Position numbers and translations under genes: made by a program. A stretch of DNA of 63,999 nt, filler included, from Sphacelaria rigidula (Eukaryota), in assembly GCA_964200075.2 (NCBI GenBank). It is 3 parts of 3 records of this genome, joined end to end, with 100 filler letters (N's around TTAATTAATTAA, not from the genome) between each part and the next. Parts side by side here need not be neighbours in the genome. Positions count along the whole stretch, not along the records: positions 42,828 to 63,999 come from CAXNAA020000458.1; 2 more parts are not named here. One strand, 5' to 3'. Every line of letters starts with the position of its first letter. Position 1 is the first letter of the stretch. Positions 46,157 through 57,183 of the stretch are shown in pieces. Under the pieces are notes generated by a model. It was not told where the DNA came from. It saw nothing but the letters and a program-made list of their open reading frames with translations, and did not search any database.

Positions 46157-47590
46157 GGATCTTCTCTTACCACTGAATATTTGCTCGCACCAGTCTTGTT
46201 CCTTGAGTGCCGTCTTTTTTTTTTTCGAGCATTAAGGCGCTGGTAGTTGCGCGATTTGGGTATGCAGAGCGAGAAAGGTCCACATTATTGGTACTGGAGA
46301 AGGATTTTATGGCGTAGGCGTGAATGATGGTCAGTTGGAGGCAAACGTTAACGGGGTTTTCTCAACAACACGCAGTACTGGGCAACGATGTTGGGTTCTG
46401 TCGCAGGACTGTCATGTGGTGGGTGTCATGGTCGATCATCATAACCAGCTGCTTTAAGGTGGATGTTCACTCCATCCCAGGGCATGCAAAACTGCGGGAC
46501 CGTAGCCGAACGACTGGAAAAATATTGTACACGACACGTATGACTGAGTACGATGCCTGCACGACCGCGCCTAGTGTGGTCTCCGCCCATATCGGCGATG
46601 TGATTTCATCGTGGCTCATGCACAAACAATTGTGACAAAAGAGAAGCGTGGCAACCGCACCTTTCCGCCCCCAAACCACGCTGTTCCTGTGTTGGCTTTA
46701 CCTCTCCATCGAAATTGCCTCTTGACAGAAGAAGGAGACATGACTCGTCGAAAAGCCCCTCTACTTAAGTTCCAACTAGGCATCCGGGTGCTGTGAAGTT
46801 CAGGTTAACCTGAGCAGTGAGCGGCGAGCCTAGCAGTCCAATTTCATGCTGATGAAAGCTGTTGTTTCCTATATTTGTTGGTCGATATATAGACATATAT
46901 GTGTGAGTGAATATTTATGACGGTTGAAGGAGGAAGTAGCCCGCGGATGAATCTTGTGGTGGCTGACAAGTCCACCGCTCACCCTGAAGTATTGTGTTGC
47001 CTATTTAGTTGTCGTCTTAAATTTGCCCAGTGAGCATTGCCACCCTGACCCTGACCCCAACCGTAATGGCGCTAACACGCCAGAGTGGCGCCCCCGTATC
47101 AGTAGGACAGTACCGCGCGGGAGACACTCCTGGTTGAGTTTATACAGAAATGGAGATGCGACGCAAGCATTTGCGATTGTGCACTGAACGGCACGGCACT
47201 GCACTGTACTCTAATCTGGTCTGTTTTGCTCTGTTTTGCTCTGCTCTGCTCTAGTCTACCTTACTGTCGTGTTCCACGTACTTTTGGTGGCCGTGTGAGC
47301 CTGCGTAGCTGGTAACGTTTTGCGAACCAGTCTGCACTATTTGCCTTTTTCGAAATGGTGATAGTCAGGCGGCATTGTCCACAAACGACCCACTCTGTCT
47401 CTTACTGCCCGCACCTGGCTATCGCTATGGAATGGTCCATTTCTGTGCGTTTACCATTTCTGTTTACTCATCACCCCCAAAGCACGGCGCGATGTATTTT
47501 TTGTTGCCTTGTACATCCCAACACAACCGTTGACCATTTCCAGTTCATACTCACAATTGCAATCTCGTGCTGCTGAATGAACCTCAAAAG

Positions 47591-48743
47591 GGTTTGCGAA
47601 CGGGGGACACGACGAGATCGATAGCGGTAGCGAAACCGACACAGTGGCAAATGATGTCGACGAAGACCGCGACGAGCAACTGGGAAGCCAACACAATAGC
47701 GCCATGGATGCCGACGAAGACCCCGAAAATCTTGAGAATTCCCCGCGGGACACGGCCCCAACGCAGGTCGACAGCCCAGATCACCTTTCCGCTGCCGTCG
47801 CCGAGCAAAATCCGCGCAACGGAGAGTTGCCACTCAACCAGCAGGTTCCATCGTTCTCACTTTCGTCTGGCGCCGGCGGCGCTCATGACGGCAACGATGG
47901 TAGTGGAAGAGGGGGTGATGATGATCTACCGGGCGAAGCTCAGGTTACGGCTCTATCTCGCCTTCGTGCCGCCAGCTTATCGTCTTCTGAGCGTCAGCAT
48001 AAAGTAGCGAGGCGCTCGTCCTCGCCCCGCCCCACCGTCCAAGGCAACAGCGCTTTTCTCGGCAGCAAGGATGACCTCGCATCGTCATCTGCAGCGCTTG
48101 AGACGACCACCGTGACGTCGCATGACCACGGGCCTTCTCCGTCGAAACGTGGCGCCACTTCCTCCCGGGGGGTAGCATGGATCCAGGCCGCTAGGGCAGG
48201 CGGTGACGGTGGCAGTGCTGGAACAGATCGAGACGGGGCTGACGAGGAGAGTCATCACACGCAGAGCACTTCGCCATCGCAGAGCATTCTTGCTCTCGGT
48301 GTGCCGCCAAATCGCCGAACTTCGTCGGGGGTAGCAGTCATGAGCAATGACAGGAGTAATAGTGAGAGGTGGGATGTTCGGGGGTCAGTGCCTAAGCGGC
48401 GAGGAAGTGCCGAGGACCGAATAGGGGAGAAACATCGAGAGGAGCAGACAAAAGGGGGAGAAGGAGAACCCCGCGCTGGGGCGGACAACTTGATGGACAC
48501 GCAGCAGTTACGGAATAATGACGATGTTTCGCAGCTTGAGAACGTTCATCCTCGACAGCTGACGGACAACATGATGGACACTCAGGAGTTACTGGAGAAT
48601 GAGGACGTTTCGCAGCTTGAGAAAATCCATCCTGAGCAGCAGCGAAGACAGGATGAACGTATCGAGCGTATCGTGCGTCAAGCCGTGCCTGGAGGTCGCG
48701 CTGCCAAGCAACGGGCTACAACAAGAATAGAATGGCTCGCAAG
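47591..48743 (+). CDS. 53BP1/Rad9-like BRCT protein, upstream disordered exon
   Basis: Long open frame with SQ/TQ motifs (MDTQ x2, DVSQ x2). Donor AAG|GTACGC is phase 2 and matches phase-2 acceptors at 49142 or 49199. Confidence 0.75.
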
Positions 48744-49142
48744 GTACGCGTGCGTAAATCTATCCAACTCTGTCCTGTTTTCCGGTTTCTGTTGAGTTTG
48801 ATATCCCGCACTAGGCGCACTAGACTTCAATTAGAGCGAGGGTGGCTCCAATGTGTCTGTGCTGGGGGGGGGCGGTATATGCTTGTGCTGTGTTGCGTCA
48901 TGACTGCTACCATGGAGGATATGCCGAAAGATTCGTTGTGGACTATGAGAGCATGATCGCCGCCTTTTCATCTATAAACGTGAACATCAGCAAGTAGGGA
49001 AGAAGTTTTCGAGCGGCTTTTGCTGCTTTTCACTCTTCGCGCTCATGTTTTCAGTGACGAGGACGACGCACGTAGCAATATACGAAACATGCGCGCTCGT
49101 CTGACAGTTTATCTCCAAAATTGTGATCGTGTATCTTGACAG

Positions 49143-52100
49143 CTCACATGGCATCGAATGTCCTGGAGCTAGCAGCGACGACATTTTTTTATTCCACAGC
49201 GACGAGGACGACGACGATGGGCGAGTTGCGCAAAGTCCTGCAAAGCGAAAGCGTGATAGTGTCGGCAGTGCCCGTGGCGGAGGTAAAAAAAAGGTGGCCA
49301 AAGGTGGAGGTGCCCAGCCCAGTTCTTGTGCTAACACCGGTGCGCGGGTCAACTCGGTAGGCGGTATCAAGAGCAGCAGTGCTACGCGAAGAAAATCCCG
49401 GACCGGTGCCGTCAGGCGAGTCGCTGCCAAGGCCACCCCCGTAGCCGTCGAAGACCACAGATTTCACTCGAATGATCGCAAGCCCCGTGTGTCGCCAGCG
49501 GAAGCTGCACAGCTTGTTACAATTGCCACGGAAGCGATTCGCAAGTCTCACGTAATCTTCGGCTCTGGTGCTGGCTCTCGCAGGGGGGGAAATGTTGCTG
49601 CTGATGGTGATGGCGCGGACGAGGCGATGGACACAGCCGGTGCCGAAAATGGAGATGCAGGTGATGTTTTCACGCCGAGCCGACTCGCAGCCGCAGCTGA
49701 AACTCCGGCGACAGCCACTGTCCAGCCTGTCGCTTCTTCTGCGTCCCGACCACCTCGGCGCAGAACTCCTGTTCGTGCTGCGGTCACCGGCGCCGCGGCG
49801 GCGGTAGCGTCGCCTGTCCAAGCAACGGAAACAGCAGCAGTGGCACCTCGGGAGGAAAGGGTTAGTTGGCCGTTACTGTGGTCGTTTCTCAGGGACGAGG
49901 AAGGATGGTCGAGCGCGGCGGGCGAAGGTGTGTTGAATTTTACATATACGATGCCGGCCCAAGGTGAGGGACACCCCGCCAGGACTTTCACGACGACACC
50001 TGAAGCGACCAATTACGTGAAGGGAATCAGCGACCTCTTGGCGCGCTTTCGGGTGTACGAGGCAAGAGGGAAGGCGGAAAAAAGTGGTGTCGGCGGCGGC
50101 AGTGTTGTCCGTGGGAGGAGTTCCTCCAGGCGTAACGCGTCAAGGTTCAGGGCAACCCGCAACGGTGGCGGCGCTGGCGTGGGTGTTGCTGCTCCTAACG
50201 AGGCCGACGCTAACACAGACGAAGTACGTGGAAATGTCTCTCGAGATGTTAACCGTGCTAGCAACTGTGGTCGAAGTGTCCCTCAGAACAGTGATTCTTC
50301 TGCGCCTCAGATGACGGCGAGTTTTGGCGGTAGTTCCCCCGAGGGAAGAGCAATTTCTTTTAGTGAAGCCGACGCTATCGCCGACAAGGAAAATCGAGAT
50401 GCTCCTGGAAATGGCAACAACGATAGCGAAAAAGATGCAGACGCTCCTCGGAAGAAGGATGTTAGCGCCGACGGTACCTCCAACGAAGTACATCGAGATG
50501 ACAACGATGATAACGCACGAGGTGGAGATGGCCCTCGGAAGAACGATGCTAGGGCCGGCGTTTCCCAAGGCACCGGCGAACAGCCCAACGGGCCCGGAGC
50601 GACGGAAGAGGTGAGAACTTCAACCGAGACGCCTCTTTCTGACGCTGAAAGGTGGGCCAAGGCCAAGGTGATCATGAATAGGGAAGGGTGGACGTGTGTG
50701 AACGGAAAAGGGCTGGTGCAAAACATGTGGCTGAAGAAGGGTGTGAAGAAGAAGACTGCAGCGTGGGGCACGAACTGCTTTCTTTCTGAGCTGGAGGTGC
50801 TGCGGCACTTGGGGCTCGCCCCAGCGGAAAAGGTGCCGTCTCCTGATCTAGGTGAGGCACGTATTGAACCCTGGGCACTCTCAAAACACAGGGGGATCCG
50901 ACCCCGAAGGAACTCTGCGGGCAACGCCCAACCGGCGAAGATGGAAACGCAAGTAGTCAATCGGCCAAAAGAGCGCCCCTGTGAGCAACCGCAGAAGAAA
51001 ACACGAGATGGCTCGAAGATCAAGCGTACCCCGCGGAAACAGCAAGCAAAACCACGCAAGAAGCGAGTGGGGGCGCTGGCGAAAGCGCAGCCGGCGGCGG
51101 AAGTAGAAGCGGAGAATACACACGGTGAAGGTATCGACAGAGATTTGATAGAATCTGATGATATTATTCACAACCCACTCCAGAGTGATGATGATGGGCA
51201 CGCGAAGCACGAAACGCAAGGGCAGCATGAGCTGCATTTGGCGTCGGCGGAGGCAAAGGCACAGGATGGCTCCAAGACCGAGGATGGCTCCAAGACCAAG
51301 CGTACCGCCCGCAAACAGCAAGCGAAACCACGCAAGAAGCGAGGGGGGGCGCTGGCGAAAGCCGCGCCGCCGTCGGAAGTGGAAGCGAAGAGTACGCACG
51401 GTGAAGATGTGAACGGAGAATTCGGAGAACCTGATGATATCATGCACAACCTGCCCCAGAGTGATGGCGATGGGCACGCGAAGCATAAAACGCAAGGGCA
51501 GCATGAGCTGCAGTTGGCGTTCGCGGAGACAAGGGCACAGGATGGCTCCGAGACCAAGGATGGCTCCAAGACCAAGCGTACCACCCGCAAACAGCAAGCA
51601 AAATCACGCAAGAAGCGAGGGGGGGCGCTGACGAAAGCCGCGCCGCCGTCGGAAGTGGAAGCGAAGAGTACGCAAAGTGAAGATGTGAATAGAGAGGAAT
51701 TGAGGGAAACTAAGGATACCATTCACAACCTACCCCAGAGTGATGGTGATGGGCACGCGGAGCGCGGAACGCAAGGACAGCATGAGTTGCAGCTGTTGTC
51801 GGCGCAGAGGAAGGCACAAGATGCCCCCAAGACCAAGCGTACCGCCCGCAACCAGCAAGCAAAACCACGCAAGAAGCGAGGGGAGGTGCTGGCGCAAGAG
51901 GCCGCACCGCTGGAAGTGGAAGCGACAAGAACGCAAGGTGAAGACGTGAATGGAGGGAAATTGAGGAAACCTAACGATATCATTCACAACCTACCCCAGA
52001 GTGATGACGATGGGCACGCGGAGCACGAAACGCAGGGGCAGCATGAGCTGCAGTTGGCGATGAGCGTGGCGCAGTTTCAAGGGAGGGGCGCCGTCGCCAT

Positions 52101-53586
52101 TTCCCCGCCGGACGCTCCAGCGCATTTGTCGCCATACGTACCCGCGGGTGATACTCGGTATTACCGGGACAGAGGCGGTGGTACCTCGCCGAGGATTCCC
52201 AGCGAAAAGTCTGGCGGTGACGATGCTAGCCGCGATGGGGACGGGGTTGAAGGTGGTGGCCACAGCACTAATGCGATTGTGTTGGGAACAGCGCTTAACC
52301 CGCGCGGTCTGCTCACAGCATCGAGTGGCCCATTGAGTGGTATGGGTGTAATCCTGACCGGTTTGCGCAGCGACACGTGCGACCTAGTTGCCGCTCTGGG
52401 TGGGACCGTGATAGTTTTTCCGCCCAAAAAAGGCGCCAATCACCTCGATTGGTTTTCTGACGGTGTTGGGGCTGGTGGTGCTGGCGACGCCGGGAGCTCG
52501 GGCGCGGTTACACTGAAAGTCGACCGCCGGCGAGTTCTTGCCGTGGCCGCGCCGGAGAGCTACAGGACGTGCAAATTCGCCTTCGCGGTGGCCGCCGGAG
52601 TTGACATCGTGCATGTGAAATACCTTGACCACATAAAGGGATCACGCCCATACTCCCCAGCAGACACTGCCAACTATCTGTTACCGATCGGGCGGTCTGC
52701 CTTAATCAACCGCGAGCTCATCATTCCCCACTCCTCGAACTTCGGTCGGAGACAGGGCTCTGAACCCGTCTACGGTGGTGGTGGTAGTCATGGCGACGTT
52801 TGCTCAGCCGGAGGGCGTCCTTTCCAGGGGAAGAACGTGCTGCTGCTGCTTGGTGAGCGGCAGCGCCCGCCGCCCAGCTGGGAGATGATTTTGTGGGTGG
52901 CGGGAGCTAGGGTGGCGACGATCGACAAGGATGGTGATCATCTGGGCGGAAGTCTCAGCGATATCCGTGTGCTTGATAAGGTGCAATACGTCAAAGACCG
53001 CATGGTTGACTACCATTTCTTCATCAATCTCGATGAGAATGTCACAAACGAAACGAGAAAAAGGCCCGCGATGGAGTTGCCCTGGGCCGCGCACAAGGCC
53101 GGCGTGCGGCAAGGCAGCATGGAGTGGGCGGCGCAGTGCATCGCGCACGGGCGAGACCTTCCGTCCGACCGGGATACGTGTCCGTGGTTTTGCGTGGAAA
53201 AAGTGTCGCTCAGCGGTGCGGCGCCTGGTGGTGTCGAGGGTACCGCCAGGAACTCCGCTGAAGAGAACGTTTTCTATTGCTTGACAACTGGCGGCCGCAT
53301 GCGATACGTGGCGGGCGACTACGTGTTTGTCCACAAGCCGCACGGAGCGACAAAGGTGGTGGCGCGCCTGGAATCTTTCGAGCGCACGAATGATCGCGTG
53401 ACGGCGGTGGTTACGGAGATGAAGGAACAATCGGGCAACATGCTATCGGACGGAGGGGTGACGCAGCGGGTGGAAGAAGCGTGGCTCGGCAGGAAAGTGG
53501 TGCTGATTGCCGACAGCACATTTGGTGCCTTGTACAACAATTCCGACCCCTCAGTTTTTTGTAAGTTTGTCGAAGCCGATGAGTAG
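49143..53586 (+). CDS. 53BP1/Crb2/Rad9-type tandem-BRCT protein with C-terminal BAH-like domain, giant last exon
   Basis: 1487-codon ORF. BRCT1 LSGMGVILTG...RTCKFAFAVAAGVDIVHVKYL, linker NYLLPIG and BRCT2 PFQGKNVLLL...WEMILWVAGA...EWAAQCIAHG parallel the 53BP1 motifs RTRKY, YLLPAG, PFQNLKVLLV, WSEILMTGGA and EWVIQCL. The ORF then continues RYVAGDYVFV...VVARLESF. Confidence 0.85.
51007..52058 (+). repeat. Coding tandem repeat, 4 units (spacing 276, 276, 261 nt)
   Basis: Units start at 51007, 51283, 51559 and 51820: DGSKTKRT.RKQQAKPRKKRGGAL...DIIHNLPQSD.DGHA.H.TQGQHELQL. Confidence 0.95.
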
Positions 53587-54558
53587 AATGCCTTGTGCAA
53601 GGCATCGTGATTTGACGTTTGCATTTTGTTTCCCGTACCGCAGCCGGCGATGGGAGGCGGCGGCCACACAAAAAGGTTCACCGAACACGCGATCGAGTGT
53701 GCTTCTGCCACCCGCACAGCGAGCAGGGACCTCTCTCGCCTTGGGGTAGTGTTCGCTTCGCGACCGCAACATGGGAATGTGCCAAATAAGTCAACTATGA
53801 GGATAGGTTTGAGTTTGATCGCGACGGTTCATTCAGATGTATAGGGTGGGGCGGGTGAGGGGCCGGGGGGGGGCGCGGACTGCTTTCGACGTCTTTTACT
53901 TTCTTTGCGTGGCGAGTAGTTCATGTATTTTTGGCAGTATTTGGATTGTTGGCCGATGTGTACAGTTGTATTCACAGTGGCCTTTTCGTATTCGAGCAGT
54001 GTGTTTCGTTTGCCGAGCACAGGGAACGCCACATTTATCGCTTGCCGCATGCAACGACGGCTCCAGTCTCTCGTGCCAACATACTGTTGCATCTTTGAGG
54101 TATATTATACATACATGGATGCGTTCGCCAGCACTGGTGCGAAAAATTGTGCCAATAGCCCTGTATAGATCATGAGTCGCTTGGCTGCATGTATATATCG
54201 CTGTGGCTGTTCATTGCCCTCTCTCCTGTTTTTGCGTTAGTATTGCACAGTAGTACCCAGGAGAACAATCTACAAAGAGTGCCTTGAGTCGTTTACCGGG
54301 CACAACTACTGTTCTCGGGCACCCTACGGGCGGCGATGGTGGCGCCGAATAGATTCAACATCGTTGCGCTGTTCCCGAATTCTCGCGCTTTGTTTTTCAT
54401 GTTTACGAGACAACCATGTCCGAATCAAGCCTTATTTTTAGCAACCGTGTCCATAATCAAGTACCTCACACGGTGCGTAAGACCAGAACTGAGACATTGC
54501 ATCGTGCGGCCCTCCGATCTTTGATATTTGCTGTACTGGCGACCTACCCTCAGATTGG

Positions 54559-54561
54559 ATG

Positions 54562-54594
<33 letters not shown>
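54559..54594. repeat. (GT)n microsatellite
   Basis: Near-perfect GT run. Confidence 0.9.
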
Positions 54595-57183
54595 TTTGTG
54601 AAATCGTGATGATTCATACCGCTCGATCTATACATATATAGTGTATATATATGCTCGCAAGGGGTGTCACTGTTGTTGTTGTTGTTGTTGCTGGTGGTGG
54701 TGGTATAGGTTTGTCTTCAGGTGCAGTTTTCTCCGCCTTTCGTGATGGTTTAGTGCCGGGGTGAGCAGTCACTAGTATCTTCGCCTATCTTGGGACTCTG
54801 TTGAAGCAGTACGTTGTGGCGCTTTTTCGTTTGGGATTTTCGCCTCCTTTTTTTTTTTTTATTTGCCGGTATGGCAGGTCCGCTGTACTCCACACCTTTC
54901 AATATCATTTTTTTGTGTACAAATGAAAAAAACACAATACGTCGGTGGGCCGGGGAGAGGGCATCGCCATGCGACAGTTACTCGAATATAAACTTGTTGT
55001 ACACTTTGGAAACAACAGTGCGCCGGTCGTTGCGGTGTATGGCGGTTGTTTTGTTGCGGAACATGATGGGCGTTTTGATGTGACGTGGTAGCTCGATGTC
55101 GAACAAAAATGGGGAGATGCGCAGGTGGGAGCTTATGACACAAGTAGGGAGGCTTTTTTCACGTGACCGGCGTTTGATCTCTCTCTCTCGCCTTGATGTT
55201 CCTGAATCGGTTCGAAGGCGGATTTGTGCAATTTTCAGGCTCGCCCTTCGTCTCGAAGATAAGCATGTACGGATTTTCTAGGGGGAGCTGAGTCATGAAT
55301 TTTGTGGTTCCGGCCGGGGTGGATCTGCCGAACCGGCTCGTCATCTCAGGAGCCCATTATCGGTGTAAAACTCGCCTTTTCGGGACAGCAGGTCCCGTTT
55401 CGGAAGGAAGGAAGGGATGCCGGTTCAATGGCGTTTGTTGCAGTTGAGCAAAGTTACTTTACATTTCTGGATATCTTGCGCGTGTCCAGTAGATTGCACA
55501 CGGCCATGTGGGAGTGCCGTCTGATTAGAAGATATGGGTCGTATGTGCATTTTCTCACTATTATCGCCTGGTTCAGAGATGATGCTGTGAAAACTTGCTC
55601 TACACACATGAGAAGCCTTTGTCAGTAGAGCGTAGAAGTGACGTCTTGGTTTTACAAAGGCGTTGATATTGGTATATTTCGCATGTACAGTACATGTTTA
55701 CCGTTGTCATACTAGAGTTGACGTCGGAGAAAATTTCTGCCCTGTTGCCGGACTGATGCCGGAGACGTGAGAGGCATTTATTTGGTCGTGGTGAAATTTC
55801 TGTTGGCGTTGAACAATCAAAAACTGTGTCTTGTTTCGCCCATGGCAGAGCGAGAACAAAGGCAAATGAACCATCAAATACATTCGCGAGAAGTGGAGCC
55901 CGCAGTTTTTCCAGCCTTGGTCGACTGGCTGACGTAATCCATGCAGTGGTTGACGTAATCCATGGATACAGCACCACATGTTGGCGGAGGGAATTCGAAC
56001 CTGGATGACGTCACCCGCGAAGGGGGTTCGGTCAATCAGGGATTTTGGAGGTATGAAAGAAACTTGTCGGAAACCCAGTCACGACCGATGCGAACCAAAG
56101 TGACAACGATACGCGGAGTGTTTCCATGATCGAAAACAGAACATGGGCACACCGATCGGTTGAACAGCCGAGGCTTTGTCTCTGCTGAGAGTGTATATAG
56201 TAGACAAACTTTGAACAAAATGTTTTCGATTGGAAGCGATTTTTTCAGCTTTTTTGGTTACCACCACTCATCACAATCCTCGTTTGATCCCAAACTTTGG
56301 GAATCGCGAGACATGAGCACCCGACACAACTTTCGAGAAAAAAATGTAATCCACGACCACTTTTGGACGAGTTGTGGGCTCACCGATCTCTGGCGGTTCT
56401 ACGAGTGTACAGCCCCCGAATCTCGCCCTTCGATATTTTTTCTGGACCGAACCGATCCTGATCTTTATAATGAACAAGTCCATGCCTTCGGTTTTTCATT
56501 TTCTCGGCATTCGTTGCGCTACAGCCGTAAAACCGTTTTTTCGGGCCATATACGACCAATAACACCCTCGATAAACGGGGTTTCATTTTGTATCGCTCCG
56601 ACAACAAGAAAAAAAATGGGAAGGTGTGCCCTGAGGACGACCTGCTTCTTTTTCCAACGCCTACCCACTCTCAAATTCTGGAGTGAAGGTGACGAATCGT
56701 CCGTGAAAAAAATCCCGATTGACTGAATACCATACCTGAAGTTTGACCGCTGCATCGCAGGTTCATTGACGATGGCGACGATGACCATGATATGAGTCTA
56801 TTTTTCTTGTAGAATGGATCTCATGGGTCTCTTGTCCGGATCTGAAACCTTGGCAACTAACCATGATGAATGAACGCCAAGTCCATGACAGTCCGCGAAG
56901 GAATAAGATGATGGAGAGGTGCCTGTACTCGCGGGAAACGATAGCCGCATTTCTCGTATTGAAGAACGTTTTGGTGTAAAGAATCGATCAGTCGACCACG
57001 TTATACTCGCGGCTGCTGAGCGACGTAGTCTCTCACTAACCTTTTTGACAGCGAGGGTGGGTCGTCTGTTCCATCGGCATCATTTTGACTCGGAACAATG
57101 AGTAGGAGCTAGATGACCCACCCTGGCGATGTCAAAGCGCTGGTACACGGAGTCTGTCGACTACGCACACACAGCGTTTTGAG

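Follow-up and report, generated by a model that had tools for sequence, protein, structure and literature searches.

A 53BP1-type BRCT pair followed by a predicted, divergent BAH fold in a brown algal protein family with no detected Tudor domain

The checkpoint scaffolds 53BP1, Crb2, and Rad9 are the textbook example of how nucleosomes at DNA breaks are read at two points, by a reader of phosphorylated H2A combined with a reader of methylated histones; to our knowledge, hardly any work on them has been done outside animals and fungi. A gene of Sphacelaria rigidula raises the question of whether a protein of this build can carry different reader modules. The gene lies in a stretch of 63,999 nucleotides from assembly GCA_964200075.2 (hereafter the window; all coordinates count along its whole length) and is encoded entirely on the plus strand. 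A single stop-free frame of 1,493 codons (49105 to 53586; protein P0001) ends in the region under study (52330 to 53583; P0002), which comprises its last 418 amino acids and is followed by the stop codon (53584 to 53586). An initial annotation made from the sequence alone had described this region as a 53BP1/Rad9-type tandem BRCT fused to a C-terminal BAH-like domain, with no visible Tudor, and had proposed a DNA damage mediator in which the BAH-like module replaced the Tudor as the nucleosome reader.

To classify the BRCT pair, a family profile of 19 sequences (alignment A1) was searched against all PDB chains. The BRCT pairs of human 53BP1 (1gzh, 1kzy, and 5ecg; E = 9.3e-9 to 1.1e-8, approximately 37 bits) and Schizosaccharomyces pombe Crb2/Rhp9 (2vxb and 2vxc; E = 1.2e-8) were recovered about 22 bits ahead of the next BRCT proteins (PARP1, E = 0.026; DNA ligase, E = 0.037; TopBP1 BRCT7/8, E = 0.038; Mdb1, E = 0.45), and Brc1, Rtt107, and MDC1 were not among the matches at E ≤ 1. 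A phmmer search of the PDB with the window C terminus returned chance matches only (E = 0.66 and 1.4). The stretch aligned by the profile begins with RTxK...AxG.P.V, includes YLLPxG.S, and reaches RPFQ.K, where BRCT2 starts; in this match, RTCK of the window protein aligns to RTRK of 53BP1 and YLLPIGRSAL to YLLPAGYSL. An AlphaFold2 (AF2) model of the 418 amino acids (mean predicted local distance difference test [pLDDT] score of 67.9) contains two BRCT units, at approximately 52342 to 53154, whose cores mostly score between 75 and 91. Foldseek placed 53BP1 at ranks 1 to 5 for this model (best 1gzh, 3.7e-8; also 5ecg and 1kzy; down to 4.1e-7) and Crb2, including 2vxc, at ranks 6 and 9, with other tandem BRCTs following within about two logs. 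Both the position of the pair and its class (profile E of about 1e-8 versus at least 0.026 for the next family) therefore match what the initial annotation had claimed, and these comparisons support a pair of the 53BP1/Crb2/Rad9 type rather than of another BRCT family. In the BRCT pairs of 53BP1, Crb2, and BRCA1, the phosphate is held by a T-G after strand 1 and by the R and K of an RxxK motif. Among the sequences covering these positions, 14 of 15 have the T-G and 14 of 15 have RxxK, P0008 being the exception in both. Because of the BRCT class and these conserved phosphate-pocket residues, binding of a phospho-epitope by the pair is likely.

The C-terminal domain was examined by structure prediction and comparison. 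Folded alone with AF2 from a 15-sequence alignment, it reached a mean pLDDT of 74.7, with 79 to 92 over residues 31 to 100. A Foldseek search of the PDB returned 24 matches at E ≤ 1e-3; the matches listed were all BAH-containing entries. The best match was EBS (5z8n; E = 7.7e-5, TMq = 0.65, root mean square deviation [rmsd] = 2.7), and further BAH matches included BAHCC1, MET1, AIPP3, PBRM1, MTA1, SHL, DIM2, DNMT1, ASI1, ORC1, and Rsc2. In VIA-align, run against 48,161 chains, ranks 1 to 19 were BAH domains (Z = 12.1 to 8.3; 87 to 114 residues aligned); after a gap came the PWWP, Tudor, and chromo barrels, with Z ≤ 6.9 and only 51 to 81 residues covered, among them the 53BP1 tandem Tudor at Z = 6.4. 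Language-model features from the ESM Atlas placed 24 of 30 hits in the BAH set (top scores, 0.92, 0.91, and 0.90, sharing 176 to 187 features), and the Atlas's own model of the domain aligned to BAH clusters with a TM of 0.68 to 0.71. These methods agree on the BAH-like nature of the C-terminal 95 or so residues put forward in the initial annotation, and the stretch beginning MRYVAGDYVFVH (from about 53299) falls within the conserved C-terminal domain. As modeled, the last approximately 105 amino acids form a full BAH fold, and not a bare Tudor-like barrel, albeit a very divergent one.

We next considered how widely this protein is conserved. The C-terminal 434 amino acids matched three proteins at E = 1.1e-89, 3.7e-76, and 1.5e-48, with 94 to 98% of the length covered. 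A scan of 1.84 billion representative proteins yielded 18 matches at E ≤ 1e-3, 15 of them at E ≤ 1e-10 (one of the 18 is P0006, an identical 414-amino-acid prediction), and searches with sub-profiles added further members, including entries from Ectocarpus spp. and Scytosiphon promiscuus labeled "unnamed protein product." By sequence similarity, then, this is a real, conserved gene whose family is present in brown algae, and the stramenopile setting of the initial proposal is a reasonable one. The BAH domain is carried by all 17 homologues with a complete C terminus (14 initially and a further 3 that the BAH profile recovered with 91 to 94% coverage); no homologue with a complete C terminus was found to lack it. 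P0017 ends inside the BAH domain, and P0019 to P0021 are fragments ending before it. Mean column identity is 0.52 to 0.55 in the BAH block versus 0.53 to 0.69 in the BRCTs, and because these values are comparable, we regard the BAH as about as conserved as the BRCTs. The linker between BRCT2 and the BAH varies from 27 to 88 amino acids across homologues. As a separate observation on this linker, it contains 5 to 13 RG or GR dipeptides in 8 of 18 homologues (including P0010, P0012, P0015 to P0018, and P0023), and one RG only in the window protein itself; in 53BP1, a glycine-arginine-rich motif precedes the Tudor, and the RG/GR-rich linkers of the homologues recall it.

Searches with Pfam detected no Tudor, PWWP, chromo, or Agenet domain at E ≤ 10 in the window protein (exons A and B; Table 1), and none at E ≤ 1 in any of 18 homologues. 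In a full-length alignment of 17 sequences, conservation upstream of the BRCTs was confined to three blocks: P0001 residues 255 to 314 and 519 to 597, which are two related modules that we call GW modules, and residues 974 to 988, an acidic motif containing TQ. The tandem Tudor that marks the 53BP1/Crb2/Rad9 family, also not seen in the initial annotation, thus appears to be missing from exons A and B and from the homologues, and because none was detected, the protein is not filed here as a canonical member of that family. It has in common with 53BP1, Crb2, and Rad9 the C-terminal tandem BRCT subtype, with its RTxK and T-G residues and the YLLPxG linker motif, and likewise a very long low-complexity N terminus; S/TQ sites are also present, in modest excess only. 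Unlike those proteins, it has no detected tandem Tudor, a BAH fold follows BRCT2, and two DUF7650-like modules (the GW modules) lie upstream. A ubiquitylation-dependent recruitment (UDR) or oligomerization region of the 53BP1 kind was not recognized in the window protein, although no search was aimed at one. Compared with known BAH domains (PF01426: EBS/SHL, BAHCC1, AIPP3, ORC1, Sir3, PBRM1, MTA1, and DNMT1/MET1), the predicted fold is the same over approximately 100 to 105 residues (rmsd of 2.3 to 3.5 for most VIA-align rows; Foldseek TMq of 0.58 to 0.68), and two of its motifs, the opening RYxxGDYV and the strand with VARxxSFxR, are similar to those commonly seen in BAH domains. In contrast to these, the domain is compact, carries a variable low-complexity insert in one loop, and sits behind a BRCT pair. 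A full-text literature search, with most subscription journals outside its scope, turned up neither a BRCT-BRCT-BAH protein nor a stramenopile relative of 53BP1.

Whether this BAH could read methylated histones depends on its binding pocket. In reader BAH domains (EBS, BAHCC1, AIPP3, and ORC1), the methyl-lysine cage is built from a Tyr that precedes the central strand and from a Trp-x-Tyr that ends the next strand. We take VVARLESFE and VVTEMKE of the window protein to be the counterparts of the EBS cage motifs, by motif correspondence rather than superposition; this correspondence agrees with a hairpin in the model (strands 47 to 58 and 61 to 68). With this mapping, the cage-equivalent columns (alignment A3) contain V/A/R/Q/M/K and T/S/E/P/M/L/K and are aromatic in 0 of 15 sequences. 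Because the cage positions appear to be nonaromatic throughout, the reading of H4K20me or H3K79me in the manner of ORC1 or Sir3, as the initial annotation had suggested, is unsupported. Four aromatic residues of the domain (F5, Y21, F40, and Y92) vary little or not at all across the family, and the motifs containing Y21 and F40 occupy core positions in other BAH domains. Basic residues are conserved as well, at R15, R36, and R42 of alignment A3. The earlier interpretation was thus supported regarding the BRCT class, the BAH fold, and the lack of a detectable Tudor but not regarding methyl reading; it also missed a spliced upstream exon and both GW modules.

The explanation that we favor, with slightly better than even confidence, is that the protein is a large chromatin scaffold built like a mediator of the 53BP1/Crb2/Rad9 type but with different reader modules. 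In this scaffold, the BRCT pair would bind a phosphoserine or phosphothreonine epitope, most plausibly the phosphorylated H2A(X) tail, by analogy with 53BP1, Crb2, and Rad9. The BAH, tethered beside this phospho-reader, would provide a second contact to chromatin or to a partner, so that binding would occur at two points. As the usual aromatic cage is apparently lacking, that contact is more likely to be independent of lysine methylation than to involve methyl-lysine reading. Precedents for methylation-independent BAH contacts are Sir3 and yeast Orc1, which engage the nucleosome surface or an unmodified tail, and MTA1, which engages a protein partner. The disordered N terminus, with its S/TQ sites and acidic-TQ motif, may serve as a phosphorylation-dependent platform for downstream factors. 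Within this explanation, the idea that the BAH stands in for the Tudor as nucleosome reader is tentative, and we doubt it more than we credit it. Similarly doubtful is the fuller proposal of a stramenopile mediator belonging to the 53BP1/Crb2 family, in which a C-terminal BAH replaced the Tudor and the resulting cassette reads phospho-H2A together with a second nucleosome feature.

Several observations weigh against the favored explanation. On the BRCT side, the window protein's own Pfam matches are all below threshold (RTT107_BRCT_5 only, E = 0.009 to 0.035, 14 to 16 bits versus a cutoff of 27); among the homologues, 7 of 15 carry a Pfam BRCT match (PF00533) at or above its cutoff, as do 2 of 3 in a second set. 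The profile match to 53BP1 depends for the most part on the segment from late BRCT1 across the linker into early BRCT2. Sequence profiles miss the BAH: the Pfam BAH model matched 1 of 15 members (E = 0.16, 12.3 bits versus a cutoff of 30.8), and a profile of the BAH region gave six matches against the PDB at E = 0.87 to 3, none of them a BAH. The linker that joins the two parts is long, variable, and disordered, so that the BRCT pair and the BAH need not act as one unit, and the cage-equivalent positions lean toward the absence of a canonical aromatic cage, leaving a histone-mark reader role not indicated. The excess of S/TQ sites in the spliced protein (17 versus 11.1 ± 2.8 in 500 shuffles) is modest, about 2 standard deviations, and the gene model, which begins at 47587, may be incomplete at its 5′ end and hence at the N terminus of the protein. 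Finally, we infer everything beyond the architecture, including a function as damage mediator, and the phospho-H2A(X) ligand is proposed by analogy.

The two GW modules offer a different candidate for the missing reader. They are homologous to one another (hhalign probability of 98%, E = 1.4e-13), share the pattern W..lWp.L...GW.w..G.Gl...YlkPG....G.d.F.S...V..hv over approximately 60 to 80 amino acids; no other conserved folded block precedes the BRCTs, an arrangement that parallels a tandem reader placed before a BRCT pair. It could be that these modules, perhaps as MBD-like binders of DNA or chromatin, took over the chromatin-reading role of the Tudor, the BAH being only a structural or partner-binding appendage. 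Weak Pfam matches to DUF7650 were found in six homologues (best E = 4.5e-4, below the cutoff), at positions consistent with module 2 in P0022 and with module 1 in others; the modules of the window protein had no Pfam match, and a full-text search found no literature on DUF7650. An Atlas query with module 1 led to MBD-bearing clusters at 0.79 and 0.78, in which 24 to 27% of members carry an MBD; together with the sequence pattern, these leads hint that the modules may be MBD-like. However, Atlas scores below 0.9 are leads only, neither Pfam nor the PDB returned an MBD or other match by profile (for module 2, six PDB matches at E = 0.22 to 1, none MBD or chromatin related), and the modules lie about 200 amino acids apart and far from the BRCTs. 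We consider this alternative unlikely.

Less probable still is that the protein is a different BRCT scaffold, such as a Brc1/Rtt107/PTIP- or MDC1-like protein or a replication or silencing factor, that merely shares the linker motif. The Pfam family RTT107_BRCT_5 comes close to its cutoff in P0007 (26.6 bits versus 27; 14 to 16 bits in the window protein), and BAH domains commonly occur in proteins of replication and silencing. MDC1/Mdb1, Brc1, Rtt107, PTIP, and MCPH1 have in common with the window protein a tandem BRCT with an intact phosphate pocket. Structural comparison separates these families poorly, since tandem BRCTs all look alike: in Foldseek, TopBP1, MDC1, BARD1, and BRCA1 follow 53BP1 within 2 logs. 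MDC1 (3k05) scores 4.5e-6, MCPH1 (3szm) 7.6e-6, and Brc1 (3l41) 4.4e-5. At the level of sequence profiles, however, these proteins are far weaker or absent, with 53BP1 and Crb2 in the lead by the approximately 22 bits noted above, Mdb1 at 0.45, and Brc1, Rtt107, and MDC1 missing at E ≤ 1. The remaining alternative, that the BAH is a true methyl-lysine reader (of H4K20me, H3K79me, H3K27me3, or another mark) that replaces the tandem Tudor through a noncanonical pocket, is the least probable of the three. In its favor, its nearest structures include readers (EBS, BAHCC1, AIPP3, TNRC18, ORC1, and DNMT1 BAH1), no Tudor was detected in the family, and F5, Y21, F40, and Y92 could form another pocket. 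Against it, none of the 15 sequences has an aromatic residue at any of the three canonical positions of the cage, as mapped here by motif correspondence, and Y21 and F40 lie in motifs that are core in other BAHs.

The gene behind the proposed chromatin scaffold extends upstream of the long open reading frame (ORF) by a spliced exon (Table 1). In one contig each of sequencing runs X1, X2, and X4, position 48741 is joined to 49141 (399 bases skipped, GT..AG, cut +2), whereas the DNA run X5 is contiguous across the intron and has no spliced joint. The run type of X1 to X4 was guessed to be RNA, and X1, X2, and X4 come from one study; because the spliced joint is present in these three and lacking in X5, we took them as transcript derived. 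The gene is transcribed and spliced. The transcript-like contigs extend to about 53830 and are interrupted only within a tandem repeat, and the frame across exons A and B is open for 1,866 codons up to the stop. Exon A encodes an acidic, low-complexity sequence in which six S/TQ sites cluster within residues 225 to 342 of the spliced protein (approximately 120 amino acids). It matched no Pfam family at E ≤ 10, and BLAST against the homologues gave short, weak matches only (best E = 0.007 over 32 amino acids). In the X1, X2, and X4 contigs, 25 letters precede 47587, and the frame is open through them. This leader was sought on both strands of the window with 0 matches at ≤1 mismatch (longest shared word, ≤10 letters), and 47587 is not immediately preceded by an AG. 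The leader may derive from a 5′ exon that is distant or was not assembled, from trans-splicing, or from an assembly artifact.

Table 1. Positions of the exons, modules, domains, and repeat of the gene within the window
Feature	Position	Strand	Remarks
Exon A (upstream coding)	47587..48743	+	386 codons, in frame with the long ORF
Intron	48744..49142	+	399 bases, GT..AG
Exon B (main coding, including stop codon)	49143..53586	+	Stop-free frame and transcript-like contigs
GW module 1	49867..50046	+	P0001 residues 255-314; conserved block, 17-sequence alignment
GW module 2	50659..50895	+	P0001 residues 519-597; conserved block, 17-sequence alignment
Tandem repeat, 276 bp, 3.9 copies	51007..52059	+	TRF score 1298, 83% matches
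Last copy of acidic-TQxQxEL motif	52024..52068	+	P0001 residues 974-988; conserved block
BRCT1	52342..52644	+	T-G loop (VILTG) and RTCK phosphate-binding motif; AF2 model
Inter-BRCT linker	52645..52830	+	YLLPIGRSAL, then a low-confidence loop (pLDDT <50, residues 121-161)
BRCT2	52831..53154	+	RPFQGK ... GSMEWAAQCIAHGR; profile, AF2, Foldseek
BRCT2-BAH linker, disordered	53155..53262	+	G- and R/K-rich; pLDDT <50
BAH-fold domain (predicted)	53263..53580	+	RYVAGDYV ... VVARLESFER ... LGRKVVL

Between the GW modules and the BRCT pair, the tandem repeat together with the motif copy that ends just past it encodes four copies of a unit of approximately 92 amino acids, each composed of a basic KTKRTARKQQAKPRKKR stretch, an acidic part, and a TQGQHEL motif. 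The acidic-TQ motif, whose consensus is D/E rich followed by ATQPQFELSSAxN, is recognizable in about 12 of 17 aligned sequences; it occurs four times in the window protein and once in the homologues. In run X4, the tandem repeat and other parts of the gene show many base differences, which suggests strain variation. Downstream of the gene, frame translations revealed an intergenic (GT)n microsatellite at 54540 to 54600. The 20 other long open frames of the window (163 to 499 codons) matched 0 Pfam families at E ≤ 1e-3, and the remainder of the window looks gene poor or populated by lineage-specific genes only.

Taken together, these comparisons describe a conserved family outside animals and fungi that has kept the BRCT reader and carries a predicted BAH fold instead of a Tudor. 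If the proposed function holds, the family would serve as a natural experiment to reveal the essential parts of the two-point mechanism, would add a type of BAH domain that is missed by sequence profiles, and would point to a candidate damage mediator in brown algae and related groups, for which our literature search found none described. Should the Tudor prove to have been replaced by the BAH, the 53BP1 family would extend beyond the opisthokonts, and reader modules would have been swapped within an ancient checkpoint scaffold.

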